Shown: positions 9,466-38,930, numbered from the stretch's first letter. The stretch: DNA of 64,000 nt from Polyangiaceae bacterium (GCA_046351325.1 JAXLYR010000002.1:752334-816333), one strand, 5' to 3'. The notes: generated by a model not told the origin, from the letters alone. Numbers and translations: made by a program.

Positions 9466-10417
9466 AGACCACGCGGGTCTCTCCGTCGCCCTGGGCGAGC
9501 ACGTAGACGCCCTCGTCGTCCCAGGCGAAGTCCACGATGTGCTCGGCCTCGTCGAGACCGAGCGCCTCGCGATCGAGGGTCTCGGCGACGCTCCCATCCG
9601 AGGCAAAACGCACGATGCCCGCGCCGTAGCTGGCAGAGAGCGCGTCGCCGCTGCGGCGGAGCGAGGGCCGCATCGGGCCGTCGCCGAGGTCGAAGATCGC
9701 GGGGCCGAGGTCGCTGGTCCCGTCACCCGTCGTGAGGACGAGCGTGGGCCCACACGCCGCGGTCTCGGGCGCGCCGGGCTCGCAGGCCGTCGGGCCGAGC
9801 GACCAGAACGCTGACGAGTCTGTAAGCGTGCCGTGCTCGCCGTCCCAGGTGTCCGGCGTGCTCAAGCTGGGCGCGGCGCCCTGCTCGTCGAGCGCGAAGA
9901 TCCCTGTGGGGCCGCACGCCGAGACCCAGACGGCGTCCCCTGCGGGGGCGACGCCGAACTCCCAAATGCCGCGGCCCGCGGGCAACACCTTCACGACGCG
10001 ATCGCTCGGGTCGACGCGCGCGAGCATGCTGCCTGGGTATTCGTCTGCGAGCACCGTCGAGACGACGCCGTCGCCGGAGGCCTCGGCGGCGACGGTGAAG
10101 ACGTTGCCCTGGTCGTCGACGTCGAAGAGCCCGTCGGAAGCGATCGGCGCGCCCCACGGGCTGAGCTCGCAGCCCGAGCGCGACGCGCGCTGGAGCACGA
10201 GCCCCTCGGGCGTGCTCATGGCGAGGACGACGCCAGCGCGGCTCGCCGCGAGCGCGACAACACCGCGCTGCGGGAGCTCACAGAGGAGCGGCGCGGCCTC
10301 CGGCTCGACCTGCGGAGCGACCTCCGGGCGGGGCGCGGCCTCGTCGCAGGCGGCGAGGGCGAGGGCGGTGATGACGAGCCCGAGGTGGCTCTTCGAGGAC
10401 AGGCTTCTTCGGTTCAT
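9452..10417 (-). CDS. Secreted lipoprotein, unknown function
   Basis: MNRRSLSSKSHLGLVITALALAACDEA; strong RBS GGAGGAGG immediately upstream of the ATG at 10417 (minus-strand reading). Confidence 0.6.
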   Translation of the reverse strand: MNRRSLSSKSHLGLVITALALAACDEAAPRPEVAPQVEPEAAPLLCELPQRGVVALAASRAGVVLAMSTPEGLVLQRASRSGCELSPWGAPIASDGLFDVDDQGNVFTVAAEASGDGVVSTVLADEYPGSMLARVDPSDRVVKVLPAGRGIWEFGVAPAGDAVWVSACGPTGIFALDEQGAAPSLSTPDTWDGEHGTLTDSSAFWSLGPTACEPGAPETAACGPTLVLTTGDGTSDLGPAIFDLGDGPMRPSLRRSGDALSASYGAGIVRFASDGSVAETLDREALGLDEAEHIVDFAWDDEGVYVLAQGDGETRVVFTSR

Positions 10418-10503
10418 GGGGACCTCCTCCCCGAGAAATAGGCCGCATCGACCCTGCGTGAGAATGCACACTGATGCCCGATGGGTCTGCAATAATCCAC
10501 AGC

Positions 10504-11382
10504 ATGAATTGGGACGATCTCCGCTTCGTGCTCACGCTGGCGCGGCTGGGGTCGCTCGTGCGGGCTGGGAAATCGCTGGGCGTCGACCACACGACGGTGG
10601 GCCGCCGCGTCGACGCCGCCGAGGCCGCGCTCGGCGTTCGGCTCTTCACGAGGACGCCAGCGGGCTACGTGCCCACCGCCGACGCCGAGCACCTGCTCGA
10701 GCCGATGCGCAAGGTCGAGGAGAGCGTGCTCGCGCTCGAGCGCAGGGCTCACCCCGCGCGCGACGCGGTCGAGGGCGCGGTGAGGGTCACGTCGCCGGAG
10801 ACCTTCGGGGCGAGCTATCTTGCGCCGAAGCTCGCGGGGCTGCGGTCGCGGCACCCGGGCCTCTCCATCGAGCTCGATCCTCGCGGCGACGTGCTCGATC
10901 TCGGGCGGCGCGAGGCCGAGGTCGCGGTGCGCTTCTTTCGGTCGAGCGCAGCGGATCTGGTCGTGCGCCGCGCCGGCGAGGTCCGCTACGGGCTCTACGC
11001 TTCGGAGAGCTACCTCGCGGAGCACCCAGTGGTCTCGCAGAAGGACCTCGCGCGGCATGCGCTGCTCGGCGTCCCCGAGGCGGACGCGCCCGAGTCACGC
11101 TGGCTCGCGAGGCTCGCGCCAGGCGCGCGGCTCGCGTTCTCGAGCACGCTGTCGCTGGCCTTGCTCGGGGCCGCGCGCGCAGGCGCTGGGGTCGCTGTCT
11201 TGCCCCGCTACTTGGGCGATCCGGAGCCTGCGCTGCGGCATTTGCCGATGCCGCACGCGCCCGCCGAGCCTATCTGGCTGACGGTGCACCGCGATCTACG
11301 GCGGACGCCGCGCATCCGCGCGGTGCTCGACTATCTGGTCGCGGCGCTCGCGGCCGACGCTGGATTCCTCGAGGGCGGGTGA
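10504..11382 (+). CDS. LysR-family transcriptional regulator
   Basis: MNWDDLRFVLTLARLGSLVRAGKSLGVDHTTVGRRV HTH motif; divergent from the lipoprotein at 9452..10417. Confidence 0.8.
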   Translation: MNWDDLRFVLTLARLGSLVRAGKSLGVDHTTVGRRVDAAEAALGVRLFTRTPAGYVPTADAEHLLEPMRKVEESVLALERRAHPARDAVEGAVRVTSPETFGASYLAPKLAGLRSRHPGLSIELDPRGDVLDLGRREAEVAVRFFRSSAADLVVRRAGEVRYGLYASESYLAEHPVVSQKDLARHALLGVPEADAPESRWLARLAPGARLAFSSTLSLALLGAARAGAGVAVLPRYLGDPEPALRHLPMPHAPAEPIWLTVHRDLRRTPRIRAVLDYLVAALAADAGFLEGG

Positions 11383-11489
11383 GCTCCTCGAGGGGGGTGA
11401 GCCGGAGCGCGTTTAGTTACAGATGTGTTTGTAAGTCGTGGTCTTGCGCTGGAGGGTCCATCTCTGCCCCCCAAATAATAGACCTCGAC

Positions 11490-12539
11490 TCAGGCGCGCT
11501 TCTTCGCGTGCACGAAGTACATCGGGGTGAAGATGCCGAGCTTGCCGGCGCGCACGAGGGCGTCGGCGCCGTCGTTGAGGAACGAGCTCACCAGGCGCGT
11601 CCCCTTCGGCGCGAGGCCCACGCGCTCCATCAGGCCGGTCGCGGCGTTGGTGACCGTGCGGCCGATCGGGGTGCGGGGCAGGGCGCGCAGCGAGAAGCCC
11701 GAGCTGTATGCGGACTCGACGTCGAGGTCGGCGTGCCACGGGATGCCGGGGAGCGAGCCGTCCGCGAGATCGCGCGCGGCGACGACGTCGAAGCCGACCT
11801 CGCGGAGGGCGCTGGTCACGTCGTCGAAGGTCGCGAGATCCGCGATGCCGTTGCCGCGCTCGATGAGGAGCTTGAGGCGGCGGTGCTCGGGGTCGTTCTT
11901 GTCGTACTTCGGGGTCATGCACCACTCGTAGAACGCGAAGCCGCCGCCCGGCTTGAGGACGCGCGCGGCCTCACCGTAGATGCTCTGTTTGGTGGGCGCG
12001 TGGCAGGTCGCTTCGATCGCGTAGGCCGCGTCGAACGTCGCGTTCGGCACGGGGATGTTGAGGAAGTCCGCCTGCAGGATGGTGCACTGTCCCTCGAGGC
12101 CCTGCTTCGCGTTGTACTTGCGGCCCTTCTCGACTTGGTAGCCGCTGATGTTGACGCCCGTCACGCGCGCGCCGGTCGTCTTGGCGATGTGGCGCATCGG
12201 GCCGCCGACGCCGCAGCCGAGATCGACCGCGTGCATGCCGCGGCAAAGGCCGAGGTGATCAGCGAGGTAGCTCTCGTGGCGTGCGAGCGCGAGATCGAAG
12301 CGCTCGCCCGGGCGCCGCGACGCGAAGTGGAAGGCCTTGCCCCAGCCGAACTCGTAGAAGTCGGTTACAAGATCGTAATACTGGGTGGTGATGGTGGCGT
12401 AGCGGTCGGCGACCGATTCCCCCTCCGCGCGGTCGAAGTGCGCGACGTAGGCCTGCGCGGTGGACTCGACCTGGTCGCGAGAGAGCCCGGGGCGGGACTG
12501 ACCGGGAGCGGCTAGTTTGGATTCGGCGTGCGTGACCAT
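11490..12539 (-). CDS. Sterol 24-C-methyltransferase (ERG6/SMT1-like SAM-dependent methyltransferase)
   Basis: Near-collinear match to eukaryotic ERG6 signature blocks: YDLVTDFYEFGWG (SMT region I), VDLGCGVGGP (SAM motif I), YAIEATCHAP, VLKPGGGFAFYEW, DKNDPEHRR, DLADGSLPGIPW, LGLAPKG, IFTPMYFV. Confidence 0.8.
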   Translation of the reverse strand: MVTHAESKLAAPGQSRPGLSRDQVESTAQAYVAHFDRAEGESVADRYATITTQYYDLVTDFYEFGWGKAFHFASRRPGERFDLALARHESYLADHLGLCRGMHAVDLGCGVGGPMRHIAKTTGARVTGVNISGYQVEKGRKYNAKQGLEGQCTILQADFLNIPVPNATFDAAYAIEATCHAPTKQSIYGEAARVLKPGGGFAFYEWCMTPKYDKNDPEHRRLKLLIERGNGIADLATFDDVTSALREVGFDVVAARDLADGSLPGIPWHADLDVESAYSSGFSLRALPRTPIGRTVTNAATGLMERVGLAPKGTRLVSSFLNDGADALVRAGKLGIFTPMYFVHAKKRA

Positions 12540-12579
12540 CGCCGTGCACTAGGCGTGTGCGGCGACGACCGCAAGCGGG

Positions 12580-13167
12580 TTAGGGGCTCGCTGGCTCCCG
12601 GCGTGCCGTTGCGAAGATGCGGGCCGAACGGACGAGTTCGAAGCCGAGCGTGCGTAGCTGCTTGTCAGTGCGCTCGTCTTTGATGGTGCCGTCCTTGCCG
12701 ATGACCTCTTGAGAGCGGTTGATCGGGACGACGAGGGGGACTGTCCAGGCGCGGAGTGAGCGCGCGATGTGGTCCATCGCGGTGATGGCTTGGAGGGCCT
12801 GCGCGCCCGCGGCGACGCCAATTAGACCTACAGGTTTGTCAGCGAGATAGGGCGGGTCTTTGTCGTTGAGGAGCTCGAGCCAGTCGATCGCGTTCTTGAA
12901 GATGCCGCTGATGGTGCCGTGATAGAGCGGGCTCGCCCAGACGATGGCGTCGGCGGCGGCGAAGGCCGTGACGAGCGACGCGACCGCGGGGGGCGGCGGC
13001 ACACCCCACTCGTAGATCGGGATGTCGAGCGTGCCGAGATCGAAGAGCTCGGTGTCGGCGCCGCGCTCCGCGGCGGCCGCGAGGACCACGCGCAGCGCGA
13101 CGAGGCTCGAGGAGCCAGGGCTCTTGGTTCCACCGAGTCCAACGACGCGCACGCGCTCCGAGGTCAC
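12580..13167 (-). CDS. NAD(P)H-dependent FMN reductase (flavodoxin-like fold)
   Basis: [17 protein letters not shown]-terminal flavin-binding loop, ~195 aa, typical SsuE/ArsH-like family size. Confidence 0.65.
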
Positions 13168-13247
13168 GCGGCCTCATGCCACCGCGCGGGCCGTGCGGCG
13201 AGGGTTGGTTTTCGCCGGGCGCGATCGGCAGTACGAGCGCGAGTCGC

Positions 13248-14180
13248 ATGGATCTCGAACAACCTGTTTACGTCGCGGGACACCGCGGCCTCGTGGGGAG
13301 CGCGCTCGTCAGGCGGCTCGAGCGCGAGGGCGCGAAGCGGCTCGTCGTGCGCACCCACCGCGAGCTCGACCTCACGGATCGCGCGGCGGTCCTCGCGTTC
13401 TTCGAGCGTGAGCGACCGCGCTATGTGCTGCTCGCGGCGGCGAAGGTCGGGGGGATCGTCGCGAACGACACGCAGTCGGCGGACTTCATCCGCGAGAACC
13501 TGCTCATCCAGACGCACGTCATCGACGCGGCCCACCAGACGGGCGTCGACAAGCTCCTCTTCCTCGGGAGCTCGTGCATTTACCCGAAGCATGCGCCGCA
13601 GCCGATGCGCGAGGACGCCCTGCTCACGGGGCCGCTCGAGCCGACGAACGACGCCTACGCGGTCGCGAAGATCGCAGGGATCACCATGTGCCGCGCGTAT
13701 CGGAAGCAGTTCGGTATGCGGGCGATCTCCGTGATGCCGACCAATCTTTATGGGCCTAACGACAACTTCGATCTGACCTCGAGCCACGTGCTGCCAGCGC
13801 TCGTGCGCAAGTTCCACGAGGCGAAGGAGCGGGGCGCGTCGTCGGTCACGCTGTGGGGGACGGGCACGCCGCGGCGAGAGTTCCTGCACGTGGACGACCT
13901 CGCGGAGGCGTGCCTCTTCCTGATGCGGAGCTACGACTCCGGCGACATCGTCAACATCGGCACGGGCGAGGACCTCAGCATCGCGGAGCTCGCGGAGCTC
14001 GTGCGCGACACAGTCGGCTACGAGGGGGAGCTCGTTTGGGACACGACGAAGCCCGACGGCACGCCGCGCAAGCTCCTCGACGTGAGCAAGCTGAGCGGGC
14101 TCGGGTGGCGCGCCCGCATCCCGCTCCGCGAGGGGCTCGCGAGCACCTACGCGTGGTATCGCGAATCGCTTACAAGGTAG
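13248..14180 (+). CDS. fcl: GDP-L-fucose synthase (GDP-4-keto-6-deoxy-D-mannose 3,5-epimerase/4-reductase)
   Basis: Rossmann GxxGxxG ([14 protein letters not shown]); catalytic region with YPKHAP…YAVAKIAG (YxxxK); ~310 aa. Confidence 0.85.
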
Positions 14181-14187
14181 TTACTGT

Positions 14188-14736
14188 CTAGCCCATCGCG
14201 GCGATGAAAATGAGCGGGACGGCGGCACCGAGGTCGAGCCGAAACATGAAGACCTTGGCTGGGCGGAGCACGCCCTCGATCGTGTCGAGCTCGTAGCCGC
14301 CCTCGAACGCGAGCACCCCCATGAAGGCCTGAACGGAGCCACCAAAGCGACCGCCGACGAAGGTCCAATCGTCCCGCCACGTGCCCGCGAGGACCTTTGC
14401 CTCGAGCAGGCCCGCGAACATCGGGCAACCGCCACCGATGCCGATACCCCCGATGAAGGCCGTGACGTCCCCGCCCTTGTCGAGGCCGACGGTGGGGGCG
14501 ACGAGGAATTGAGGACTGAGCGGGTGGGTCAGCGCCATCTCACGCCCGAAGTAGAGGTTCACACCAGCGGTGACGTCGAAGTCGAAGCCGTCGGTCGGGC
14601 CGGGCTCGGGACCGATGGAAGAGCGGTCGCCAAAGCCGAGGCGTACCGTCGGCAGGGGCGTCTTACCGCCCTCGGCCGAGGCGCGGATGGAATAGGTGAG
14701 CGCCGCCGCGGTCAACGCGAGCACGAGAGCCTTCAT
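14188..14736 (-). CDS. Secreted Gly-rich protein, possible small beta-barrel; immediately downstream of vgrG1
   Basis: Signal peptide MKALVLALTAAALTYSIRASA; alternating hydrophobic pattern; no recognisable family. Confidence 0.4.
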   Translation of the reverse strand: MKALVLALTAAALTYSIRASAEGGKTPLPTVRLGFGDRSSIGPEPGPTDGFDFDVTAGVNLYFGREMALTHPLSPQFLVAPTVGLDKGGDVTAFIGGIGIGGGCPMFAGLLEAKVLAGTWRDDWTFVGGRFGGSVQAFMGVLAFEGGYELDTIEGVLRPAKVFMFRLDLGAAVPLIFIAAMG

Positions 14737-14879
14737 GGTGTTAGAAGCTATAACGGTGTTAAAGAAAATCAACCCGCAGGCGCCGATCTGTTACGCCTCG
14801 CTCGTCTTTGTGAGCGACGCGCGGCCTTCGTACGGCGTCGAGTGGGCGTGTCACCGCGCGGCGGTGGAGGGCGACGCGG

Positions 14880-17378
14880 CTATCCGCGCTTCGCGGACCC
14901 GAGGCGCGGGAACACGACTGTCCCGCCCTCTTCCAGTGAAAGCTCGATCGAGCCGTCTTGGCGGAGGGCGCCTGCGAGCTCCGTTCGGTCATCCAGCTTG
15001 AGGAGAAATGGCTCCCCTGCGAGCGGGCGGCCGTCTTGATCGGTCAGTTCGATACGGGTCGGATCAGGCGGGGACTTGAGCTCGTCTTTGGCGCGGCTCG
15101 GGGAGTTGAGGAGGATCTGTTTGCCGTCGATCTTCACGTCCTTGCTCATCGCCACCGAGGCCTCGTCGGTCTTCACCGTGAGGCTCTTGGCGACGAGGGC
15201 GACGGCGTCCGAGGCGCAGAGCTTCAAGCCGTCGCTCGAAGTCTCGACCCGGGCCTCCTCACCCGAGAGGCTGACGGCGCTCGCGACCAGGTCGATGCGG
15301 TCCTTGGTGATCCGCACGAAGCTCGACCCCACGCCGAGGACGATCTCTCGATCGGAGCGGAGCTCGAGGCGCTCGGTCGCGAAGCTGGTCCGCGTGCCCT
15401 CCACGTGGAGCGCGCTGGCTGCGCTCTTGTCTGCGGTCCCGATGACCTGCGTGTGGTGTCCAGCCACGGTCTCGTGGAGCGTTTGCTTGAAGGTGTGCGC
15501 GGCGGGCCCAGCGATCGTCAATTGCTCAGCACCAGCGACCTCGAGCGCCCGGGTCGTGCGCACTACCTCCAACGAGGTCCCCGCGACGATCCGCCGGGCG
15601 CCCGTGACCGCGACGTCCTGATCGGAATCGATCTTCAGCGATTGTCCCCCCTCCAAGCGTGCCGATTCCACACCGACGACGTGGCGTACGGACTCGCCGC
15701 GGACCTCGAGCCGGAGAGCGTTCTCGACCCGCGTCTCGTGATCGTGCTCTGCGACGAGCTTGAGGTCGCGACTGGCGTGTAGATAGAGCTGCTCTTTACC
15801 CTGCTGGTCTTCGAAGGAGAGCTCGTTCGCGCCTGTGCCGCGCGTGGAGCGAGAGCGAAGCCCGCTGCGCGCACCGACGCCGACGTCGAACGGCATCGTG
15901 TGCGTGCCATTGAAGACGCAGCCGAGCACGATGGGTTTGTCCGGGTCGCCGTCCTCGAAGGCGACCACAACCTCCATCCCGGCCCGCGGAATGAACTGCA
16001 TTCCCCAATGAGCGCCCGCCCAGGGTTGCATGGTCCGAACCCAGCACGAGCTGCGATCGCCACCCGGGGCACGGTCCCAGTTGAAGTGGATCTTGATGCG
16101 GCCGAGCGCGTCCGCGTGGAGCTCGTCCAGCACGGGGCCGACGACGGTAGCTGTGAGCGTGGCGCTCACGACACGCCGAGGCCCGCGCTCTGGCAGGGTC
16201 AACGTCGAGGCTGGCGCACACTCGAAGCGACACTCCAGCCTGCGATCCTCGAGCGCATCGCTGCCTTTGTATCTTGCAGTTACGACGACGTACTCGCCAT
16301 TGTCGGCGTCGCGCGGGTGGTCGACGAGCTCGAATCGATACCCCGGCGAGAGCGCCCCGCTCGAAGTGGTGGCCGTCGCAGTGCTCGCCCGTCGACGAGC
16401 GCGCGCGAGCAGTCGCGCGGGTTCGTCTTTGACGTCGTCCCACTCGGGGTCGAGAAAGGCTCCGCCATGCTCGTAGAGCTCGAGGTCGAGCTCAGGGGCG
16501 CCGGGGAGTGCGGACTCGTCGCGACTGACAGCTGCGCTCGCGGAAGATGGAAAGAGGGGACGTTCGGGATCGTATTCACGATAGACCGCACGCGCCGCGC
16601 GCACCCGACGGCTCGCGCGAAAGCACTCAACGATGTTTCGGTCGCCACCGACGCCAGTTGAACCTTCGCGATAGTGCAGCGTCGGGACAGAAGCTCCTCC
16701 ACCCGAGGTGCCATTGGAGTCCGCGGCCGATGGATATGCAGCGGCGTTGTCCGCGAAGACTATGACCTCGCGGGCGCGAACCACGGACTCGAGACCAGCA
16801 TCGTTTGGGTCTCTCAGCCACGCGAGGACGGCGGCGGGCTGCTGGAAGAAGTGGAAGACGCCAGCCTCGGCGGCGAGCCGCTCGACGAACTCGAGGTCGC
16901 TCTCCTGATACTGGGTGATCATTGGCTTCGACGGGAAATTCCGCGTGAGCGCCCAGCGAAGGTCGATGTGGGGCGACAACACCTCTTCTATGACGGCAGG
17001 GACGGTCATGTCCTGAAACACGCGAGAACGGCGCGTGTGCTCGAGGAGGGCCATCGCGGGGACGAGTCGGTAGCGCTCATCCATCCGCGCGCCACCCTCA
17101 CGCGAGCCCTCAGCGCGCACCGCCGAGACCACGCCGTGAACGACACGCGGCCTATTGTCGACGGAGATTACCAGCGAGGCTCGGGCTCCGAGGACCAAAG
17201 AAGTGTCGACCGCGGCCTCGACAGACGCGAGGACGTCGAACGAGTAACACTTGGACAGAGCCTCGCGCCCGCGGAGTCGGTGCACGCGAAAGGACGTGGC
17301 GGAGAAACCTGCCACGAACAAGGAGAACGGAGCACTCAGTCCTTCAGTCATCGCGCCATCCACGGGGCTACGGGTCAA
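14880..17378 (-). CDS. vgrG: Type VI secretion system spike protein VgrG (copy 1), with ~130-aa C-terminal extension
   Basis: Canonical VgrG blocks: FSLFVAGFSATSFRVHRLRGREALSKCYSFDV, ITQYQESDLEFVERLAAEAGVFHFF, RIKIHFNWDR…SSCWVRTMQPWAGAHWGMQFIPRAGMEVVVAFEDGDPDKPIVLGCVFNG. Followed by a gp5-like beta-helix and extra C-terminal tail. ATGA overlap with the upstream gene. Confidence 0.9.
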   Translation of the reverse strand: MTRSPVDGAMTEGLSAPFSLFVAGFSATSFRVHRLRGREALSKCYSFDVLASVEAAVDTSLVLGARASLVISVDNRPRVVHGVVSAVRAEGSREGGARMDERYRLVPAMALLEHTRRSRVFQDMTVPAVIEEVLSPHIDLRWALTRNFPSKPMITQYQESDLEFVERLAAEAGVFHFFQQPAAVLAWLRDPNDAGLESVVRAREVIVFADNAAAYPSAADSNGTSGGGASVPTLHYREGSTGVGGDRNIVECFRASRRVRAARAVYREYDPERPLFPSSASAAVSRDESALPGAPELDLELYEHGGAFLDPEWDDVKDEPARLLARARRRASTATATTSSGALSPGYRFELVDHPRDADNGEYVVVTARYKGSDALEDRRLECRFECAPASTLTLPERGPRRVVSATLTATVVGPVLDELHADALGRIKIHFNWDRAPGGDRSSCWVRTMQPWAGAHWGMQFIPRAGMEVVVAFEDGDPDKPIVLGCVFNGTHTMPFDVGVGARSGLRSRSTRGTGANELSFEDQQGKEQLYLHASRDLKLVAEHDHETRVENALRLEVRGESVRHVVGVESARLEGGQSLKIDSDQDVAVTGARRIVAGTSLEVVRTTRALEVAGAEQLTIAGPAAHTFKQTLHETVAGHHTQVIGTADKSAASALHVEGTRTSFATERLELRSDREIVLGVGSSFVRITKDRIDLVASAVSLSGEEARVETSSDGLKLCASDAVALVAKSLTVKTDEASVAMSKDVKIDGKQILLNSPSRAKDELKSPPDPTRIELTDQDGRPLAGEPFLLKLDDRTELAGALRQDGSIELSLEEGGTVVFPRLGSAKRG

Positions 17379-18046
17379 TCGGGCTGACCGCTCGCATCCA
17401 CGAGCGCGTCTCGAGTGGCTTGGTCGAGCTCACCTTCAGGTAGGCCGGCGGCGCGCTGAAAGGCCTTCACCGCACGGGGGACGTCAGCCTCTTCGATCGG
17501 TCCACCCGACGTGAGATATCCCAGGTTCTCGAGCCGTTTCGCGACGCCCGCGACGGTGGTGGATGGGTCCACGTCACCGACGACCAATTGGTACTTGCGC
17601 TCGAAGTTGACGACGTCGAGCAGGATGGTCTTTGTCGTGATTGGACACTCCAGGGTCACGCGGACAATCTTCTGCGAAGGGCTCGCGCTCTCCCCGACTT
17701 CTTCCTTGGTCACCCGCGCGCCGCTAGCAGGGTCGACTGTGCATCCTGGTGTTTCGGGGGCGAGCTCACAGCCGGTGAAGCGCAGCTCGAGTTCGAGCCT
17801 CTGAAGCGGGACGGTCGCCTGATATTGATTGGTCGACTGCTTGCGGAGCGACGCGCCGCTGAGCTTACTTATTGGAAGGTAAATGACGTCGCCCGGAGAC
17901 AGGACGTCAGGCGACGCCCGCAGCGCGCGCAGCTTGTCGTTGGACGCGTGATTCCACACCTCGTCCACTGTCGCGCCGCGCTCGAACGCCAAGGCCTGCA
18001 AGTGGTCCCCGCGCCGAATGATGTACGGTCGATAGTCCTCAGCCAT
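17375..18046 (-). CDS. LysM domain plus C-terminal peptidoglycan-binding (PG_binding_1-like) domain protein
   Basis: N-terminal LysM (YIIRRGDHLQALAFERGATVDEVWNHASNDKL…PGDVIYLP). C-terminal LENLGYLTSGGPIEEADVPRAVKAFQRAAGLPEGELDQATRDAL resembles a PG-binding helical bundle. Translationally coupled to vgrG1. Confidence 0.7.
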   Translation of the reverse strand: MAEDYRPYIIRRGDHLQALAFERGATVDEVWNHASNDKLRALRASPDVLSPGDVIYLPISKLSGASLRKQSTNQYQATVPLQRLELELRFTGCELAPETPGCTVDPASGARVTKEEVGESASPSQKIVRVTLECPITTKTILLDVVNFERKYQLVVGDVDPSTTVAGVAKRLENLGYLTSGGPIEEADVPRAVKAFQRAAGLPEGELDQATRDALVDASGQPD

Positions 18047-18055
18047 GGGTCGTGC

Positions 18056-20077
18056 TCACGGGTCGAGCGGGTCCCGGATATTGATTCGAAGGACACGCGG
18101 GTGAGGGACGAGGACGGCGTGCATGCGCTTATCGAGCTTCTTGTAGAAGTCCTTGTTCGCAAGGTAGCGCTTGCGTAGCCGCGCCCAGGCGTCCTTGTCG
18201 AGCTGGTCCATCTCTTCGTCGTTCGTCCCATAAGGTCCCGACTCGCAGAACGTGCAGAACTCGCTCGAGTCGCCGATGAACCAGTGCGGTCGGTAGCCAA
18301 GCTCCGTCTTGCAGCGGGAGTTGTATTGAGACCACCACGGAGACTGGAAGTAGAAGGCTTGGTCATCCATGAGGGGGATGACGCCGATCATCGCCGCGAG
18401 CGCCCCGCCTGCCATCATGACCGCACCAGCCGTCATGACCTCGTCTGCGTCATCGTTGCCCTTCATAATCGTTTGGGAGGCGATGACCATGGCCGTGCCC
18501 GCCACCCCCATGGCGCCCGCGGCCACGGTGCCGACGATTGCACCCGTATCGATGCTTTTCGCCTCGCCCCCGGTGGTGATCAAGTAGGGCCCATGGAGCC
18601 CGTAGGCCATCAACAGGCGACTTGCGTTCCGCAAGTTCGTCGTGCTGTGGCGAGCGCGCGGCTCGCGAATGACGAACCGTGCGGGGGCGCCCTCGATGTC
18701 CGAGTCGGGAGACAGCGCGTACTTGCGCATGAGCTCTGCTTCGGTCTGGTCGGTCCCGAGCGGATACACCCCGCCGCCGCTCATCACCACGAACGGCGCG
18801 AGCTGGGTCGGCGGTACGCCCGCAATATCCGTGAAGGTCTGCAGGTCCTTGAGGGCTTGGTCGACGCGCCTGGCGCCCTCCTCGGAGACGTATTTCGAGA
18901 CCTCGTCGCTGCTGAGGGCGGTGTAGCCGGGGACGATCACCGCGTCGAAGGGCTGGGGGTACGGGTCGCTGACGATCTGTCGTGGCCCGCCACCAGGGCG
19001 CACGTGGACGGCACGTGGCTCGCCCCCGAGACCATGCATGGCCGCGTAGCTCTTGAGCGCTTGCTCGACCTCACTGTCACGCGGCCAGGGGTCGCCCGCC
19101 ACCGAGCGCACGATGAGGTCGCGCAAGACCTCTCCAGCTTTGGTCAGTCGCTCCTCACCATATTCGTAGGCGGTCTCCTCCGCCGCGGGCGGTGGCTCGG
19201 CGTAGTTATGACAGTAGGTGTCGTCGTCGAGCGCCTCGGTGAGGAGTAGCGCGAACATCATCGTGCCGCTGATGACAGTCGGCTTCTTGGTCGGTATCGG
19301 TAAGCTTACCGTCTTGACACTGGACGCTACGCCCGAGAGGCGCCCGAGTTCCCCTGGCACCTCCCCAGGTGAAACATAGGCCTTCACAGCGTCGAGTCGC
19401 GCATACTCCAGAAGGATGGCGCGCAGGAACGCGGCGCGCAGCGGCATGCAATAGTAGAGAAAACCGTGCCGATACACCCGCCCGTCCGCGAGCGCGCCGC
19501 CGTATTCTCCACCCGCCCCGAGGATCGCCAACCATGCAAGACAGTCCTGGTCGCGGGTGATGGGGCCCTGCCACTCCGGATTGGATAGATACGTCCCGGG
19601 CGTGGCATCTGCCTCGAATACCAAGCTGCGAGAGCTCTCGATTGCATTCTTCGGGTTGGGAGAGGATACGAGCCGCGCGAACTTCCACGACGTGGCGGAC
19701 GAGAGCGTCCCGGAGAGGTCCGCGGGGCGGAAGCCGTAGAGCCTTCCCAGGTGAGCCAGCCGGTCGGTTGAGACGGCGTCGGCGGTCTCGGCGTTTGCCC
19801 GACCGAGCCAATCGGCGATCTCGAGCCCGGTATCGTGGTTCGGGGCTACGCGAAAGAGCCACGCGTCCACTCGCTCACGGATATGGGCGATTGCGGCGTC
19901 GCGCGTCGAGTCGTCAGCGGCCCGCGCGTATGCGTCGACTGCGCTAGCGAGGGGAGGCAGGTCCCTATTGGTGACTTCCGTCATGGGGGTGGGCGGTGTC
20001 GTGTGCGCGTACGAGCTGAGACCCGGGAATGGCCGATCGCCAGCCCCATTGCGGGAAGAGACCACAGTTCGACCCAC
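18056..20077 (-). CDS. Membrane protein with DUF218 (YdcF/ElyC/SanA-like) domain and Cys-containing C-terminal domain
   Basis: DUF218-like block DAVIVPGYTALSSDEV…FVVMSGGGVYP…TEAELMRKYAL…STTNLRNAS. Gly/Ala/Met-rich TM segments (AIVGTVAAGAMGVAGTAMVIAS…). C-terminal WFIGDSSEFCTFCESGPYG. Start uncertain (GTG 20077 or ATG 19984). Confidence 0.55.
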   Translation of the reverse strand: MGRTVVSSRNGAGDRPFPGLSSYAHTTPPTPMTEVTNRDLPPLASAVDAYARAADDSTRDAAIAHIRERVDAWLFRVAPNHDTGLEIADWLGRANAETADAVSTDRLAHLGRLYGFRPADLSGTLSSATSWKFARLVSSPNPKNAIESSRSLVFEADATPGTYLSNPEWQGPITRDQDCLAWLAILGAGGEYGGALADGRVYRHGFLYYCMPLRAAFLRAILLEYARLDAVKAYVSPGEVPGELGRLSGVASSVKTVSLPIPTKKPTVISGTMMFALLLTEALDDDTYCHNYAEPPPAAEETAYEYGEERLTKAGEVLRDLIVRSVAGDPWPRDSEVEQALKSYAAMHGLGGEPRAVHVRPGGGPRQIVSDPYPQPFDAVIVPGYTALSSDEVSKYVSEEGARRVDQALKDLQTFTDIAGVPPTQLAPFVVMSGGGVYPLGTDQTEAELMRKYALSPDSDIEGAPARFVIREPRARHSTTNLRNASRLLMAYGLHGPYLITTGGEAKSIDTGAIVGTVAAGAMGVAGTAMVIASQTIMKGNDDADEVMTAGAVMMAGGALAAMIGVIPLMDDQAFYFQSPWWSQYNSRCKTELGYRPHWFIGDSSEFCTFCESGPYGTNDEEMDQLDKDAWARLRKRYLANKDFYKKLDKRMHAVLVPHPRVLRINIRDPLDP

Positions 20078-20197
20078 TCGTCGACAGGCAGCTCACGCGA
20101 ATGCCCCGCACGTCCGTCGAGCCCGGCCCCATCGGGCTCGGTCGCGGACGTTGTGACATGACTATCGATGAAGCTACGGTGCTGTAATCGACGGGCC

Positions 20198-28927: not shown

Positions 28928-30415
28928 ATGTCGCAACCCACGAGACCCATGCTGCCCCTCGAGCGGAAGGGCACACCCGCTCGGGTGGACCTCTCCTCTC
29001 CGGACTTCGACTTCCAACACTTCTTCGTGCGCAAGCTCGTCGCGCGCGAGGGCGTCTCGGAGCTCTACCGCTGCACGCTGCACCTCGCCTTGCCGACCTC
29101 CGCGAACGCCGACGTCACCGTCGCGAGCGCGATCGGCGCGGCGGTCCGCATCGAGCTCGTCGACCAAGGCGGAACGCCGGTGGGCGTGCTTCACGGCATC
29201 GTCGACGGCGCGAGCATCACCGGCGGCGAGGAGAGCCACGGCCTCGAGGCCTGGGAGATCACGGTCGCTCCGCGCGCTGCGCGCCTCGCGCTCGTGACGA
29301 CGCAGGAGATCTTCATGCAGAAGTCGGTGCCGGCGATCATCGCGGCGAAGCTGGAGGAGGCGGGGCTCGGCTCGAGCTTCGCGATGCGCCTCAGCGGGAC
29401 GTACCCGGAGCGCGAGTTCGTCGTCCAATATCGGGAGACCGATCTCGACTTCATCTGCCGGCTCGCGGAGCACGTCGGCATCTCGTTCTCCTTCGAGCAA
29501 GGCGAGGACGAGGAGATCATGGTCTTCACCGACGACACGAAGGCTCTCGCGCCGGAGCTCAGCGAGCGCGTCGTGTATTCGCCGCGGCGCGATGTCCTCG
29601 GGGTCTTCGAGCTCACGCGACAAGCTCGCATCATCCCGACGGTCTACGCGGTCCAGGACTACAACTATCGAAACCCGAACCTCGACGTCGGGGCGATCGT
29701 CGAGAGCGCGCTCGGCTCGGGTGGCGGCGTCGTCGAATACGGCGCGCACCAGAAGGACCCGGACGAGGGCAGGTGGCTCGCGAAGGTGCGCGCCGAAGAG
29801 GCCGAAGGGCGCGCGTGTTCTTACGCTGGTGTAAGCGTCGTCGGGGGCCTGAGCGCGGGCGTCCACTTCGCGCTCGAGTCAGCGCCGCCCTGGGCGGACG
29901 CCTCGCTCTTCGTCGTCCGCGTCGAGCACGAGCTGTCGACCCCGCTCGGTGGTGATGCCTCGGAGGCCGCGCGGTACGTGAACCGCTTCACGGCGATCTC
30001 GTCGAACACCCGCTTCCGACCGGCGCGCTCGACACCTCGCCCTCGCATCCACGGGGTGGTGAGCGCGGTCGTGCAGGGCTCGGGCGGCTCGAGCTACGAG
30101 GCCAACCTCGATCCGCAAGGCCGCTACCTCGTGCAGTTCCACTTCGACACCGCGGAGCCCGGGCTGCCGCAGCCGTCGAGGCCGGTTCGTATGTCGCAGC
30201 CCTTCGCAGGGCCGAACCAAGGCATGCACTTTCCGCTGCGGCCCGGGACGGAGGTGCTCGTCGTCTTCATCGACGGCGATCCCGATCGACCCATCATCGT
30301 CGGCGCGGTGCCGAACACGGTGACCCCGAGCGTCGTCACCGCCGTGGAGTCGCAGCGCCACCGCATCCAGTCTCACCACGGCCTGCTCGTGCAGTTTGGC
30401 AAATCGCTTGCTTAG
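28928..30415 (+). CDS. vgrG: Type VI secretion spike protein VgrG (copy 2), short form lacking most of the C-terminal beta-helix
   Basis: VgrG N-terminal/gp27-gp44 blocks: FQHFFVRKLVAREGVSELYRCTLHLALP, VVQYRETDLDFICRLAEHVGISFSF, VQFHFDT…QPFAGPNQGMHFPLRPGTEVLVVFIDGDPDRPIIVGAVPN; ends 495 aa. Confidence 0.85.
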   Translation: MSQPTRPMLPLERKGTPARVDLSSPDFDFQHFFVRKLVAREGVSELYRCTLHLALPTSANADVTVASAIGAAVRIELVDQGGTPVGVLHGIVDGASITGGEESHGLEAWEITVAPRAARLALVTTQEIFMQKSVPAIIAAKLEEAGLGSSFAMRLSGTYPEREFVVQYRETDLDFICRLAEHVGISFSFEQGEDEEIMVFTDDTKALAPELSERVVYSPRRDVLGVFELTRQARIIPTVYAVQDYNYRNPNLDVGAIVESALGSGGGVVEYGAHQKDPDEGRWLAKVRAEEAEGRACSYAGVSVVGGLSAGVHFALESAPPWADASLFVVRVEHELSTPLGGDASEAARYVNRFTAISSNTRFRPARSTPRPRIHGVVSAVVQGSGGSSYEANLDPQGRYLVQFHFDTAEPGLPQPSRPVRMSQPFAGPNQGMHFPLRPGTEVLVVFIDGDPDRPIIVGAVPNTVTPSVVTAVESQRHRIQSHHGLLVQFGKSLA

Positions 30416-30429
30416 TCAGGAGAAGACCA

Positions 30430-32012
30430 TGAGTGACACCCAAGGAACGACGAGCAGCAGCAACGGCAGCAACGGATCGACGGCGTCTCAGCCCGTATCG
30501 GAGACGGTCCCCGAGCATTTCCGCATCCTCGTGCCGAACCCCGAGACCGAGCTCCAGCTCGGGCAGGGCGACGCGGTCTCGGGTGGCGCGGCCTTCGTCG
30601 GCATCGCCGGCCGCGTGAAGAAGGGCGGTGTTCTCTTCGCCGCCGGAGGTTTCCCGGGTGGGCTCCAGGCCGAGGACGGGAGCTTCGAGCAGTTTCGCAA
30701 GGCGCACACGACGATCTCCGTTGCGGTCAGCGGCATCGCCGCGGCCTCGCTGCTCTTCAGGTCCGCTTATCAACGCAAGGAAATCTGCCTCTTCGATCTC
30801 GTCGTGAACGGCCTCCTCGGCTTCGCCGCGCCGGCAGGCATCGGCGTCGCTTTCGGGGCGATGGATAACGGGATGTCGAGCGCGGACGGCAGCATCGCGC
30901 TCTACGGCGACAAGAACGTCGCGATCGCGACCCCGATGACCTTCGGCGCTACCGCCGGCCTCGCCGCCTCGATCAACGGTGGGATCGTCGCGTCGCTCAA
31001 CGCGACCGGCGCGGCCTCGGTCAACGCGGTCGTGGCGAGCGTCAACGGCGTGTGGAAGGCGAACGTCGGCGCGATCGAGACGAACATCATCGCCGACAGC
31101 AAGCTCACGCTGGCCTCTCGTCGCGGCGGCGCACTCGTCGCTGGCGAGACGATCCAGATCGGCCAAGCCACGGCGAAGATGCCGCTGCTCGATCGATTCC
31201 TGAGCGGCGGGCAGTACGGGACCAAGCGGGTCGACCTGCGCGCCGACGAGGTCATCCACATGGAGCCGGGCGACGAGAAGACCAAGATCGCGGGCGCGCC
31301 GACCAAGCTCCACCTCGACAAGAAGACGGTCCGCGCCGAGACGACGGGCAGCGCGCTGACGCTCGACGCGAGCGGCACGTGGCACGCCGGCAACTCGATC
31401 ATGAAGCTGAGCTCCGACAAGCTGTCGCTCTGCTTCGGTGCGGTCGCACCGAAGGAGGCCTCCGACGCGATCATCAAACCGGCAGAGGTCGCGTGGAAGG
31501 AGGCGCAGGACGCCGCCGAAGAGATCGAGGAGACCGTCGACAAGGTCGGGTTCGCGAAGGCCGGTCTGCTGCTCGGGACGGTCGCTGGCGGCATTTCGAC
31601 CGCGATCGTTGGAGCTCAAAGCATGAGCGACGATCAGAAGTCGATGATCGATCTCGCGGCTCTCGGCGCCGGCATGGCGCTCGGGCCCCTCGCCGGGTTC
31701 GGTGTCGCGAAGGCCGTCGAAAAGGTCCTCACGAGCAAGGCGCAGGCAGCGGCCCGCAAGGCCGCGGACAAAGCCCTCACGGCGGCGGTGAAGGGAGGCC
31801 TCAAGGCGGAGCAGGCCGCTGTCAAAGCGCAGGGCAAGCTCCCGACGAACCCGGCGATCGAGCTCGCCTCGAGCGGCGTCACGCTGCGAGTCGGCAAGTC
31901 GAAGATCACGATCTCCGCGACGGAGATCTCGATCGAGACCGCGCCGGGACTCGAGGTGAAAATCAACGGCAGCACGTTCTCCGCCACTGGCGTCAGCCTT
32001 GCAGGGACCTGA
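30430..32012 (+). CDS. Uncharacterised 527-aa Gly/Ala-rich protein with hydrophobic segments and beta-helix-like repeats; candidate VgrG-associated cargo or split spike C-terminus
   Basis: RBS aggagaag before the ATG at 30430; hydrophobic stretches (TISVAVSGIAAASLLF, LVVNGLLGFAAPAGIGVAFGAM); periodic segments reminiscent of a VgrG beta-helix; Lys/Ala-rich helical C-terminus. Confidence 0.5.
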
Positions 32013-34563: not shown

Positions 34564-34726
34564 CCGACGCCCTCTCGCGCCTGCGCCTCGACCGAAGCCC
34601 GAGGTCGTCTCCGACCTCGACCTCGCGGCGCGGATTTCCGCAACCTCGATCTCGAGGGGATCGCCTTCTTTCGAGTGAACCTCAAGGGCGCGAACCTTCC
34701 GGGCGCGCCTCGCGGACGCCACGCTC

Positions 34727-36622: not shown

Positions 36623-36656
36623 GCCCCACCCCAACCCCACGGAGAGAACGAACCCG

Positions 36657-37466
36657 ATGATCCAGGCCTCGAGCATTTCGTCGCACGCACCCATGACCTC
36701 GAGCGGAGCCGCGGTGGCGCCGCAGCCGACGGGCGCGTGGGTGAGGCAAGGGCGCGTCGTCGCCTCGGCCGCGCCCGGCACCGTCTGCGTCGCGATCAGG
36801 CGCGAGAGCGGCGAGCCCGATGCTGTCCTCGCGCAGCTCTCGAGCGCAGCGATGGACGCGCAGGCCGGTGACGAGGTCGTGGTGCTCGGCGAGGGCGAGT
36901 CCGCGTTCGTGATGAGCGTCCTCGGCGCCGCGCGTGGGCCGAGCGCGCGCGCCGTCGTCGCGCGGTCGGGCGCGAGCGCTTCACTCGACGAGCACGCGGG
37001 CCGCGAGCGGCTCGTCGTGCGCGATCGCGACGACAAGGTCCTCTTCGAGGTCGACGCCGAGACGGGTCGCACGGTCATCAGCGCCGCGCGCGGCAACCTC
37101 GCGCTGCGCGCGCCCGACGGCGATCTCGAGCTCGAGGCGAAGGGCGCGGTGCGCGTCCGCTCGCAGGCCTTCGACGTGAGCGCCGAGAAGGCCGAGCTCG
37201 CCCTCGACGACGTCGCGTTCGCGGGCGAGCGCCTCCGCGCGAAGATCGGTGACGTCCGCAACGTCTTCGGGCGCCTCGAGACCGTCACCCAGCGCCTCTT
37301 CGAGACGGCGAAGAGCGCCTTCCGCAATGTCGAGGACCTCAGCCAGCTGCGCGCCGGCCGCGTCCGCACCCTCGTCAAGAAGGGCTACTACGTGCGAGGT
37401 GGCCACGCCGCGGTCGAGGCCGAAGAGGACGTGAAGCTCGACGCCAAGCAGATAAGGCTCGGCTGA
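36657..37466 (+). CDS. DUF3540-like protein (conserved in vgrG-DUF2169-pentapeptide islands)
   Basis: Position and size (269 aa) match the DUF3540 slot between pentapeptide and DUF4150 genes; motif pattern …ALRAPDGDLELEAKGAVRVRSQ…; RBS ggagag before the ATG. Confidence 0.55.
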   Translation: MIQASSISSHAPMTSSGAAVAPQPTGAWVRQGRVVASAAPGTVCVAIRRESGEPDAVLAQLSSAAMDAQAGDEVVVLGEGESAFVMSVLGAARGPSARAVVARSGASASLDEHAGRERLVVRDRDDKVLFEVDAETGRTVISAARGNLALRAPDGDLELEAKGAVRVRSQAFDVSAEKAELALDDVAFAGERLRAKIGDVRNVFGRLETVTQRLFETAKSAFRNVEDLSQLRAGRVRTLVKKGYYVRGGHAAVEAEEDVKLDAKQIRLG

Positions 37467-37522
37467 GCCGAGCGTCGACTAGTCAGTATATAACCCCCAA
37501 TCCAACAGAGAGGTGTATTGAT

Positions 37523-38539: not shown

Positions 38540-38573
38540 CGAGCTGAGGGCTAGCGTCTATCGTCCTCTTACG

Positions 38574-38930
38574 ATGAGCGCGGCCAGCCCCAATAGCCCC
38601 GCTAGCGAGCCCTGCTGTCCGCCGCCCAACGAGCAGGCGGACCTCCGCCCGATCGAGGGCGACGACGCCGACGAGGAGCTCGCCGCCCTCTCGAAGGCCC
38701 TGGGCCACCCAGCGCGCGTGAAGATCTTGCGCATCCTATTGCGCAAGAACGCCTGCATTTGTGGCGATATCGTCGAAGAGCTGCCCCTCGCGCAGTCGAC
38801 CGTCTCCCAGCATTTGAAGGTGCTGAAGGAGGCAGGCCTCGTCCGCGGTGAGGTCGACGGCCCGCGTGTTTGTTATTGCATCGAGCCGCGCACACTGCGC
38901 CGGCTGCGCGCGCTGGTCGGGGGGCTTTAG
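38574..38930 (+). CDS. arsR: ArsR/SmtB-family metalloregulator
   Basis: HTH block [18 protein letters not shown]…[30 protein letters not shown] with metal-binding Cys pair; heads the ars operon. Confidence 0.85.

Follow-up and report, generated by a model that had tools for sequence, protein, structure and literature searches.

A DUF218-family protein encoded upstream of vgrG as a candidate cargo effector of an orphan type VI secretion island in a Polyangiaceae bacterium

Introduction

In a Polyangiaceae bacterium, one vgrG gene stands last in a row of three, behind a gene for a DUF218 protein and a gene for a 223-aa protein with LysM-like and PG_binding_1 domains. What do proteins of these two kinds do beside the gene for a type VI secretion system (T6SS) spike? 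We examined the locus within its window, the whole 64,000-nucleotide stretch of DNA analysed. The reading that we favour, and hold to be probable, is that the locus is an orphan T6SS vgrG island encoding a spike, a spike-bound adaptor and a DUF218 cargo effector, in reversed order. We take the DUF218 protein for a cargo effector rather than for a new component of the T6SS. The cassette is of the known T6SS kind (spike, adaptor and cargo) and is unusual only in that the adaptor and the likely toxin are encoded upstream of the spike gene.

Effector loading by LysM and PG_binding_1 proteins and a YdcF-family T6SS toxin candidate have both been published. LysM and PG_binding_1 are among the "effector discrimination" domain families of vgrG loci, where they occur as stand-alone proteins, on the VgrG C terminus or on the toxin N terminus, with PG_binding_1 reported in some gamma-proteobacteria only (Commun Biol 2023; PMC10673891). 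In Ketobacter alkanivorans GI5 (gene order VgrG-LysM-Kalk_10455-Kalk_10450), a LysM protein encoded on its own was shown by co-immunoprecipitation to link VgrG to the downstream effector (PMC10673891). The preliminary description of our locus held that a DUF218 partner is no described T6SS component; a YdcF-family candidate is already in print, however: PA2066, a putative toxin of the Pseudomonas aeruginosa H2-T6SS and an Hcp2-binding protein with toxicity in E. coli (mBio 2021; PMC8262886).

Organization of the locus

ORF calling identified four co-directional minus-strand ORFs spanning positions 14188-20077. The DUF218/YdcF-like gene (18056..19984, minus strand) is followed after 9 nt by the gene for the 223-aa protein (17375..18046, minus strand), which combines a LysM-like fold, an Ig-like beta-sandwich and PG_binding_1. 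After a further 23 nt comes vgrG (tssI; 14880..17351, minus strand; 823 aa) and, 143 nt beyond it, an orphan gene for a 182-aa protein (14188..14736, minus strand), whose membership in the unit is uncertain. The order is thus cargo-adaptor-vgrG, with vgrG the last of the trio. On the 5′ side of the DUF218 gene lies a 213-nt intergenic region (19985..20197, minus strand) that probably contains the promoter. We found no sigma-70-like site upstream of the DUF218 gene, in a scan that is uninformative for this organism, and promoter and terminator scans of the locus gave nothing informative.

Two gene boundaries differ from those first proposed. The DUF218 protein had been given as 673 aa, which is correct for the maximal ORF from GTG 20077; the protein itself is more likely to be the 642-aa product of ATG 19984, which matches the NCBI model (P0004). 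The vgrG start had been said to overlap the end of the 223-aa ORF (ATGA), with 4-bp translational coupling. However, the 223-aa ORF stops at TGA 17377-17375, and the annotated vgrG ATG at 17351, which is followed by an A and is the NCBI start, sits 23 nt further downstream. The only start that gives a 4-nt overlap with the 223-aa ORF (TTGA) is an unannotated TTG at 17378; from there the maximal vgrG ORF encodes 832 aa, compared to 823 aa in the NCBI record (MFO0548747.1).

The DUF218, 223-aa and vgrG genes have GC3 values of 0.75-0.81, as against 0.84-0.93 in the flanks, while the gene for the 182-aa protein is host-like (0.86). The 64-kb window, which is the sole part of the genome covered, contains no T6SS core genes. 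Elsewhere in it there is a further vgrG island, whose other genes include DUF2169, DUF3540 and PAAR-like ones.

The spike protein and the gene downstream of it

The identification of the spike protein stands. In Pfam, the 832-aa maximal ORF matched Phage_GPD (193.9 bits), Phage_base_V (61.3 bits) and Gp5_trimer_C (76.9 bits), and against TIGR03361 VgrG scored 382.5 bits, compared to a cut-off of 186.35. The window VgrG is a genuine T6SS TssI.

The downstream 182-aa protein was also correctly described as Gly-rich with a secretion-type N terminus: glycine makes up 16.5% of its residues, and its start resembles a signal peptide. Searches of Pfam and NCBIfam and a homologue search revealed no homologue or family for this protein, and it has no similarity to genes near other DUF218 loci. 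It is a weak candidate for an immunity protein and, on these two grounds, finds no support as one.

The 223-aa protein and its family

PG_binding_1 was detected in the 223-aa protein by Pfam (PF01471, residues 169-215) with 29.6 bits, above the cut-off of 23. The LysM domain that the preliminary description had named together with PG_binding_1 is putative, being below Pfam detection and visible as a fold only. NCBIfam gave no match for this protein, nor for the DUF218 or 182-aa proteins, and the 223-aa protein has no transmembrane segment or signal peptide.

A LysM fold beside a gp27/gp5-type spike also occurs in P2 gpX, in the pyocin R2 "glue" protein PA0627 and in the LysM baseplate proteins of extracellular contractile injection systems (eCIS); the preliminary description had pointed to gpX and eCIS. 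By this account, the 223-aa protein would be a gpX-like LysM part of a phage-tail-like particle (P2 gpX or Afp/PVC-type eCIS) and VgrG would be the spike of that particle. Those LysM proteins, however, are structural components encoded in tail gene clusters, whereas no sheath, tail, tube or baseplate genes were found among the scanned ORFs of the 64-kb window, and the 223-aa protein carries two additional domains. Moreover, its LysM fold fits generic LysM domains no worse than contractile injection system baseplate proteins. We rejected a gpX or eCIS role because the scanned ORFs contain no tail-type cluster, and consider the analogy weak and the reading extremely improbable.

We refer to homologues of the 223-aa protein, with the same LysM-like, Ig-like and PG_binding_1 parts, as PGB proteins. 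While a word-indexed homologue search returned only two relatives, an exhaustive profile search revealed a family of 590 clusters at E ≤ 1e-30. An exact-sequence look-up with the 223-aa protein of the window matched no recorded contig. The module, of about 210 aa, occurs in Myxococcota, Planctomycetota, Acidobacteriota, Verrucomicrobiota and Pseudomonadota. In three proteins (P0038, P0048 and P0075), the whole 210-aa module is joined to the C terminus of VgrG, as it is in P0131 and P0133, which are partial proteins. Their sequences run collinearly with the window VgrG and then the PGB protein. We saw no fusion of PGB to a toxin N terminus.

VgrG adjoins the PGB gene in eight loci. The family is not strictly linked to vgrG, since five other loci have no VgrG within 5-10 kb. 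VgrGs that are paired with PGB proteins have a conserved, long C-terminal extension, and the window VgrG is 31-41% identical to PGB-linked or PGB-fused VgrGs, with the alignment reaching approximately residue 815-826.

In ~16 of ~20 loci, the gene directly after PGB encodes a large protein, and the families of these partners are unrelated. They include DUF218, an M23 peptidase, an MBL-fold protein, a metallopeptidase-like protein and several proteins with no Pfam match. Two partner pairs are recurrent (L001/L102 and L015/L016), the second with a conserved third gene. At the level of BLASTP, the PGB-linked cargos have no common N-terminal "loading" domain.

From these sequence relationships, the 223-aa protein is a candidate for a spike-bound adaptor or a detached VgrG C-terminal extension. 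Several features described for such factors (PMC10673891) are present: PG_binding_1 itself, a stand-alone gene beside vgrG and, in other organisms, fusion to the VgrG C terminus. Like the loading factors of the Ketobacter type, the protein is small, bears LysM and/or PG_binding_1 and has as gene neighbors vgrG and the gene of a large, here putative, toxin. In this comparison, which is by domains rather than by sequence, the window differs in joining both domains and an Ig-like sandwich in a single protein of about 210 aa, in its Myxococcota host and in its order of cargo-adaptor-vgrG. The classical adaptors DUF4123/Tap-1, DUF1795/Eag and DUF2169 (the last with an example in the second vgrG island of the window) are likewise conserved small or medium-sized partners of polymorphic effectors encoded with vgrG, but they have unrelated folds and are not secreted. 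Some organisms make VgrG and the PGB module as one polypeptide, so the module is probably expelled with the spike, unlike the classical adaptors.

Linkage of the three genes

The wider DUF218 subfamily is common and has no T6SS linkage. On one rival account, the DUF218 gene has a housekeeping function in the envelope and stands beside a vgrG/adaptor pair by coincidence. To weigh this, we consider its relatives. Among 5.8 billion clusters, there are three full-length DUF218 homologues in all (the P0004 type of the window, P0005 and P0006), each from uncultured Myxococcota-type metagenome-assembled genomes (MAGs) or metagenomes. A metagenome scan with these three long proteins gave no match. A second scan, with a nine-sequence alignment, retrieved only the general DUF218 subfamily with the ARHSTTNLR motif (at least 568 matches), and none of the 80 loci of this subfamily that we examined contained VgrG, PGB or PAAR. 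In a crude hydropathy test, about 47 of 59 complete subfamily ORFs had signal-peptide-like N termini. Toxin-delivery domains are absent from the large proteins of the subfamily, one of which has a BNR/sialidase-like propeller joined to it.

All three full-length homologues, P0005 and P0006 among them, adjoin a PGB gene, in three different arrangements. VgrG is also adjacent in two of the three loci, and the contig of the third is not long enough for a judgement. In a Polyangiaceae MAG (L003), the order is VgrG, PGB, DUF218, with 1-nt spacing or overlap. Compared to the window, its VgrG is 36% identical, its PGB 37% and its DUF218 protein 38%, an equal divergence of the kind expected if the set was inherited together. 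Together with the atypical GC3 that the three genes have in common and the gaps of only 9 and 23 nt, the recurrent linkage and equal divergence largely refute chance adjacency, which we regard as having very little probability. The synteny survey that had been proposed therefore bears out the three-gene unit. It does not bear out the view that the arrangement is exceptional: the related MAG keeps the trio in the usual order, and another locus (L005) also has adaptor and cargo upstream of vgrG.

The DUF218 protein shows two traits expected of a cargo effector: in different genomes its gene stays close to vgrG or to an adaptor gene, and it lacks a Sec/Tat signal though its domain is usually extracytoplasmic. 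A cognate immunity gene next to the DUF218 cargo was not found in the window or in L003, where such genes could be non-homologous or distant, and these two loci have no conserved neighbor in common that could encode immunity.

Features of the DUF218 protein

The assignment to DUF218 was upheld, if narrowly. PF02698 matched with 30.5 bits, compared to a gathering cut-off of 27.6, and a YdcF-like alpha/beta fold accompanies this match, as in the DUF218/YdcF family. The AlphaFold model is poor (pLDDT 60), and a PDB sequence-profile search from the DUF218 alignment did not retrieve YdcF.

The N-terminal ~340 aa form an all-alpha extension (18965..19984, minus strand), delimited by alignments and AlphaFold secondary structure. 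It is common only to the three VgrG-linked proteins; matches of the general subfamily start at about residue 345. We infer that it may be a loading or recognition region. The DUF218 domain itself (residues ~347-642; 18059..18946, minus strand) contains the invariant motifs IVPGYT, APF..SGG.V.P.GT..EA, ARHSTTNLRNA, SQ.FYF and RDPLDP, and is split by a Gly/Ala-rich hydrophobic helical hairpin (residues ~480-539; 18368..18547, minus strand). Across nine aligned sequences, including the three VgrG-linked ones, E415, R445, H446, T448, T449, N450, R452 and N453 are invariant, as are D638, P639 and D641 in the terminal RDPLDP motif. A Cys-rich C-terminal domain, as first described, is not supported: the last 100 residues contain three cysteines, only one of them conserved among homologues, and belong to the DUF218 domain, whose C-terminal half lies there.

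The hairpin consists of two hydrophobic helices (residues ~483-501 and 521-539 in the 642-aa numbering), with Kyte-Doolittle 19-mer peaks of 1.87 at residue 483 and 2.04 at residue 521. In the AlphaFold model, which has low pLDDT here, the helices span 480-506 and 513-539. Only the VgrG-linked proteins carry this insertion, which is missing from the short DUF218 relatives in the alignment. Hydropathy revealed no signal peptide, Sec/Tat signal or N-terminal hydrophobic segment. Thus, the transmembrane segments of the preliminary description have a counterpart in the two hydrophobic helices, but these form an internal hairpin with no N-terminal signal or anchor, and the label "membrane protein" is doubtful.

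Could the hairpin be the toxic part? It might insert in the prey inner membrane, in the style of glycine-zipper or pore-forming effectors, with the DUF218 fold as a scaffold only and delivery by VgrG and adaptor unchanged. The GxxxG-like spacing of the two helices and their restriction to VgrG-linked DUF218 proteins point this way. So do the strongly hydrophobic segments of two unrelated PGB-linked cargos (L001_804 and L005_633) and the apparent loss of a catalytic position described below. However, several other PGB-linked cargos have no such segment, and the hairpin sequence is poorly conserved, with just one segment above the hydrophobicity threshold in L003. The motifs that are invariant even in the VgrG-linked proteins argue for a retained active or ligand-binding site. 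We regard killing by membrane disruption as unlikely.

The putative catalytic triad of SanA is Thr/His/Glu (T125, H149 and E182). Alignment to SanA with hhalign covered only 57 columns (residues 63-119), with a probability of 20%. In a manual alignment, the triad Thr falls on the invariant T448/T449, the His position corresponds to Y545 in SQ.FYF, and the Glu could not be placed. Since the triad His seems to be replaced by Tyr in this manual alignment, enzymatic activity of the DUF218 protein is only putative. Compared to E. coli SanA/ElyC and YdcF (3CA8), the window protein has the DUF218 fold and a Thr-containing motif in common but belongs to a distinct subfamily, marked by ARHSTTNLRNA and RDPLDP. 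SanA and ElyC are periplasmic, serve housekeeping functions and are fixed to the inner membrane by an N-terminal anchor, whereas the window protein has an internal hairpin; membrane association with extracytoplasmic action is plausible for it, too. The likeness to PA2066 is one of family. That protein, of 23.9 kDa, is bound inside Hcp2, has no vgrG or adaptor neighbor and acts in the cytoplasm, while the window protein, at 642 aa, exceeds the Hcp lumen, is linked to VgrG and an adaptor and carries an N-terminal extension and a hydrophobic hairpin.

SanA and ElyC work in envelope biogenesis, and both upstream proteins of the window have cell-wall-related domains. These facts and the lack of an evident immunity gene would suit proteins that serve the producer's own T6SS as accessory envelope factors (TagL/TagN-type or TagX/MltE), binding or remodelling its peptidoglycan to allow assembly or firing, rather than as cargo. 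Neither protein, however, has a signal peptide or N-terminal anchor that would place it in the producer's periplasm. TagL/TagN/TagP-type anchors have a membrane anchor or signal peptide, an OmpA/Pal-type domain and a core-cluster location; the 223-aa protein has none of these, carrying PG_binding_1 instead of OmpA and lying in an orphan island with no core cluster. Fusions join the PGB module to VgrG, which is the part that is expelled, and not to proteins of the membrane complex. The many large, mutually unrelated proteins with which it pairs are the mark of polymorphic cargo, and the DUF218 type, with three instances, is extremely rare. An accessory role in the producer is decidedly unlikely.

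Proposed mechanism and significance

For the cargo-effector reading that we prefer, the gene fusions and published co-immunoprecipitations suggest how the parts may act. The 223-aa protein would bind the VgrG C-terminal extension, as a detached VgrG C-terminal domain, and would hold the DUF218 protein on the spike. Since other organisms carry this module as a covalent part of VgrG, it probably exits the producer together with the spike, and may then dock the cargo on the prey cell wall through its two peptidoglycan-binding folds. The DUF218 protein would most likely be active in the prey periplasm or envelope, because it is without a Sec signal, yet relatives of its catalytic domain are mostly exported. 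There the inserted hairpin may be its membrane tether, in the manner of the SanA and ElyC anchors, and the protein may disturb the metabolism of cell-wall or lipid-carrier-linked precursors. The periplasmic DUF218 domain of SanA influences peptidoglycan synthesis (PMC12176290).

The most specific form of this proposal is a DUF218 enzyme turned large VgrG-delivered weapon, docked on the prey wall by the spike extension, tethered to the inner membrane of the prey by its hairpin and poisoning the step of lipid-carrier-linked precursor flux for the cell wall that SanA and ElyC tune in E. coli. We give this version only a small chance. If true, it would make the biochemical activity of the DUF218 family accessible through a strong phenotype that can be assayed, and a DUF218 toxin could help to identify the substrate of SanA, ElyC and YdcF. 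To our knowledge, no DUF218 protein has an established biochemical activity.

Large VgrG-dependent DUF218 proteins, with three instances, would add a candidate effector family to the T6SS repertoire of predatory myxobacteria. An orphan vgrG operon with a LysM-bearing effector and a presumed cell-wall target has also been described in Myxococcus xanthus (vgrG2-tsxE-tsxI; PMC5801462). In that system LysM is fused to the toxin (TsxE, LysM and amidohydrolase), the toxin domain is a different one, the genes lie 3′ of vgrG and the operon includes one for immunity (PMC5801462).

The LysM-like/Ig-like/PG_binding_1 module is widespread and occurs now as a gene of its own, now fused to the VgrG C terminus, a distribution that extends the 2023 description, in which PG_binding_1 was confined to some gamma-proteobacteria (PMC10673891). 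In genome searches, it could point the way to new polymorphic T6SS cargos, which mostly lack a Pfam domain. The reversal of gene order is itself of little consequence.

Gene content and spacing of the cassette

The window matched a Polyangiaceae MAG at 100% identity; its region 14188-20077 carries four co-directional genes on the minus strand. The first lies at 18056-20077. As a maximal GTG ORF it encodes 673 aa, the length in the preliminary description, but the NCBI model (P0004) begins at ATG 19984 and has 642 aa. Its match to Pfam DUF218 passed narrowly (30.5 bits, threshold 27.6; profile positions 1-87 of 133), which upholds the fold proposed earlier. The second gene (17375-18046) encodes a 223-aa protein, called PGB here together with its homologues, in which the expected PG_binding_1 domain was found at residues 169-215 (29.6 bits). 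The product of the third, vgrG1, matched Phage_GPD, Phage_base_V, and Gp5_trimer_C and scored 382.5 bits against TIGR03361 (cut-off 186); by these profiles we assign it as a true T6SS VgrG. The fourth gene (14188-14736) encodes a 182-aa protein that does appear secreted and Gly-rich, with a signal-peptide-like N terminus and 16.5% Gly; family and homologue searches returned nothing for it. Housekeeping genes flank the cassette, with Pfam matches to S15 peptidase upstream and to NAD-epimerase and FMN reductase downstream.

The 4-bp ATGA stop/start overlap said to couple translation of PGB and vgrG1 does not exist. The TGA stop of the PGB gene occupies 17377-17375, and "ATGA" is the ATG at 17351 plus the following A, 23 nt past that stop. 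The NCBI vgrG1 record (823 aa) begins at this ATG, and an exact-sequence look-up contained the ATG version and neither the TTG nor the GTG version. A 4-nt TTGA overlap is possible only from an unannotated TTG at 17378. The gaps between consecutive genes are 9 nt (DUF218 to PGB), 23 nt (PGB to vgrG1), and 143 nt (vgrG1 to the 182-aa gene). Because the first gaps are so short, the first three genes are tightly packed and, judged by spacing, very likely co-transcribed. These three genes (14880-19984) have GC contents of 0.63-0.66 and GC3 of 0.75-0.81, compared to 0.84-0.93 for GC3 in the flanks, suggesting that they were acquired as a block. GC3 of the 182-aa gene is host-like (0.86).

PGB proteins resemble T6SS adaptors with polymorphic cargo

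An AlphaFold model of the 223-aa protein, built on 42 family members, was confident (pLDDT 89.4) and contained three units: beta-alpha-alpha(-alpha)-beta (residues 5-58), an Ig-like beta-sandwich (81-155), and a three-helix bundle (165-219). The LysM domain claimed earlier gave no Pfam match, but the model includes a LysM-like unit. Searching 1.84 billion representatives with a profile yielded 590 clusters at E<=1e-30, with matches nearly all 205-225 aa long and aligned end to end. Among the top 150 matches, Pfam revealed five C-terminal fusions to VgrG. Since the window VgrG1 and the 223-aa protein align collinearly with such fusions (in P0048, residues 21-872 with VgrG1 and 884-1094 with the 223-aa protein), this Rosetta-stone evidence argues that the 223-aa protein acts as a C-terminal spike extension in detached form.

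We retrieved approximately 20 loci containing PGB-family members. In about 16, a large protein is encoded directly 3′ of the PGB gene, and these partners belong to unrelated families: DUF218, M23 peptidase (L010, L017), metallo-β-lactamase fold (L011), metallopeptidase-like (L015 and its homologue in L016), and several proteins lacking Pfam domains. VgrG is adjacent in eight loci (window, L001, L003, L005, L007, L014, L016, and L101); none was present in five others, which have 5-10 kb of sequence to either side. Such gene content is typical of a T6SS adaptor that serves polymorphic cargo and matches a published description of LysM and PG_binding_1 families at vgrG loci, where they stand alone or are fused to the VgrG C terminus or to toxin N termini (PMC10673891).

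Some PGB-cargo pairs recur across phyla. L015 (a Pseudomonadota MAG, 10001-13357) and L016 (a Verrucomicrobiota MAG, 3867-7387) share the adaptor, a 582/632-aa metallopeptidase-like cargo (32% identical), and a further conserved gene for a 301/275-aa protein (34%); this cassette looks, from its conserved content, like an adaptor-effector-immunity unit moving between phyla. The 804-aa cargo of L001 has a relative in L102 (39% identity). In L011, the metallo-β-lactamase-fold gene (9060-10934) has a GC3 of 0.27 in a locus of about 0.5-0.6 and looks recently acquired. Other loci contain two PGB-family copies, in tandem or flanking a vgrG (L002, 262-1538; L005, 9998-10630 and 17632-18294; L007, 2638-3603 and 5507-6385), suggesting that one spike is served by an array of alternative adaptor-cargo pairs.

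The DUF218 protein is a candidate cargo

The DUF218-PGB-vgrG linkage recurs. Only two full-length homologues of the DUF218 protein were found, P0005 (38% identity) and P0006 (36%), and both adjoin a PGB homologue. L003, from another Polyangiaceae MAG, has the usual layout of VgrG (6665-9355), PGB (9357-10001), and DUF218 (10001-11884); on a JGI contig the PGB and DUF218 genes are convergent. The three window proteins are 36, 37, and 38% identical, respectively, to their L003 counterparts. From these equal identities and the common lower GC3, the trio behaves as a single inherited unit in which gene order has been shuffled. The placement of adaptor and cargo upstream of vgrG, emphasized in the preliminary description, holds in the window but is not unique, as L005 has the order PGB, cargo, VgrG.

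Two features distinguish the three VgrG-linked DUF218 proteins from their relatives: an all-α N-terminal extension of ~340 aa and a hydrophobic hairpin (residues ~480-539). The reported transmembrane segments are these hydrophobic helices; their hairpin interrupts DUF218 after the LITTGG strand and before the SQAFYF motif. The supposed Cys-rich C-terminal domain is the second half of DUF218; its last 100 residues contain three Cys, one conserved.

The wider subfamily (ARHSTTNLRNA and RDPLDP motifs) has at least 568 metagenome matches, and no VgrG, PGB, or PAAR genes were found near its members in 80 loci examined. In a crude hydropathy test, ~47 of 59 complete ORFs had signal-peptide-like or lipoprotein-like N termini; the domain therefore normally works outside the cytoplasm. 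An exported 1039-aa protein (L027, 5382-8501) joins a BNR/sialidase-like β-propeller to a domain of this subfamily, hinting at action on glycan-containing substrates. Since the domain is normally extracytoplasmic and the window protein lacks an export signal, T6SS delivery into another cell's periplasm would be the simplest route to its usual compartment.

The 223-aa protein may bind the conserved C-terminal extension of VgrG1, holding the DUF218 protein on the spike, and would probably be expelled along with it; docking at the prey sacculus may then occur through its two PG-binding folds, and the DUF218 domain could act in the prey envelope. The periplasmic DUF218 domain of SanA restrains PG synthesis and requires T125, H149, and E182 (PMC12176290). 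In the subfamily of the window protein the Thr motif is invariant; a short alignment with SanA tentatively places Tyr at the His position. The inserted hairpin offers a rival to such domain activity, namely membrane damage. What weakens the effector reading most, by either activity, is the lack of a conserved immunity gene alongside the three DUF218 genes (neighbors compared between the window and L003; the 182-aa protein has no homologue).

By analogy, each cassette component has a precedent. The 223-aa protein resembles VgrG-linked LysM/PG_binding_1 loading factors, one of which, a stand-alone LysM protein, bridges VgrG and its effector in co-immunoprecipitation; PG_binding_1 at vgrG loci was reported in γ-proteobacteria (PMC10673891). 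For the DUF218 protein, first thought to lack T6SS precedent, the counterpart is PA2066, a YdcF-family T6SS toxin candidate reported to bind Hcp2 and to be toxic in E. coli (PMC8262886). TsxE, encoded downstream of vgrG2, likewise represents a myxobacterial vgrG locus with LysM, although the effector itself carries the domain (PMC5801462). The analogy with a gpX- or eCIS-type tail component found no support, as the ORFs scanned in the window included no tail genes. The preliminary description was thus confirmed in part as observation and supported in part as interpretation. What is new is modest: a large candidate DUF218 cargo, VgrG-dependent and bearing a hairpin insertion; a widespread module of ~210 aa that combines LysM-like, Ig-like, and PG_binding_1 units and occurs far beyond the γ-proteobacteria; and the reversed gene order.

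Other features of the window

A second orphan vgrG island occupies 28928-37936 (plus strand). Its VgrG2 (495 aa) has gp27 and OB domains only, aligns with VgrG1 only at residues 25-490, and may be truncated or split; a 538-aa ORF without Pfam match (30396-32012, plus strand) overlaps it. The island also encodes a DUF2169-pentapeptide-repeat fusion, a 631-aa pentapeptide-repeat protein, DUF3540, and a Tox-PAAR-like protein. Directly 3′ of the PAAR-like gene, a 186-aa ORF (37979-38539, plus strand) with a partial Endonuclease V match (PF04493, E 6.6e-11) could be a nuclease effector of this second island. An ArsR-like ORF (38352-38930), with which it overlaps, heads an arsenic-resistance operon (ArsD, ArsA, ACR3/SBF-type transporter).

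Sterol-modifying genes are uncommon in bacteria and known in some myxobacteria; the window contains a sterol C-methyltransferase-like gene (11490-12539, minus strand; Sterol_MT_C and methyltransferase domains) and a cytochrome P450 gene (25136-26521, plus strand). Two tandem paralogues of ~700 aa, each with several CarboxypepD_reg (transthyretin-like) domains, lie at 55059-59360 (plus strand).
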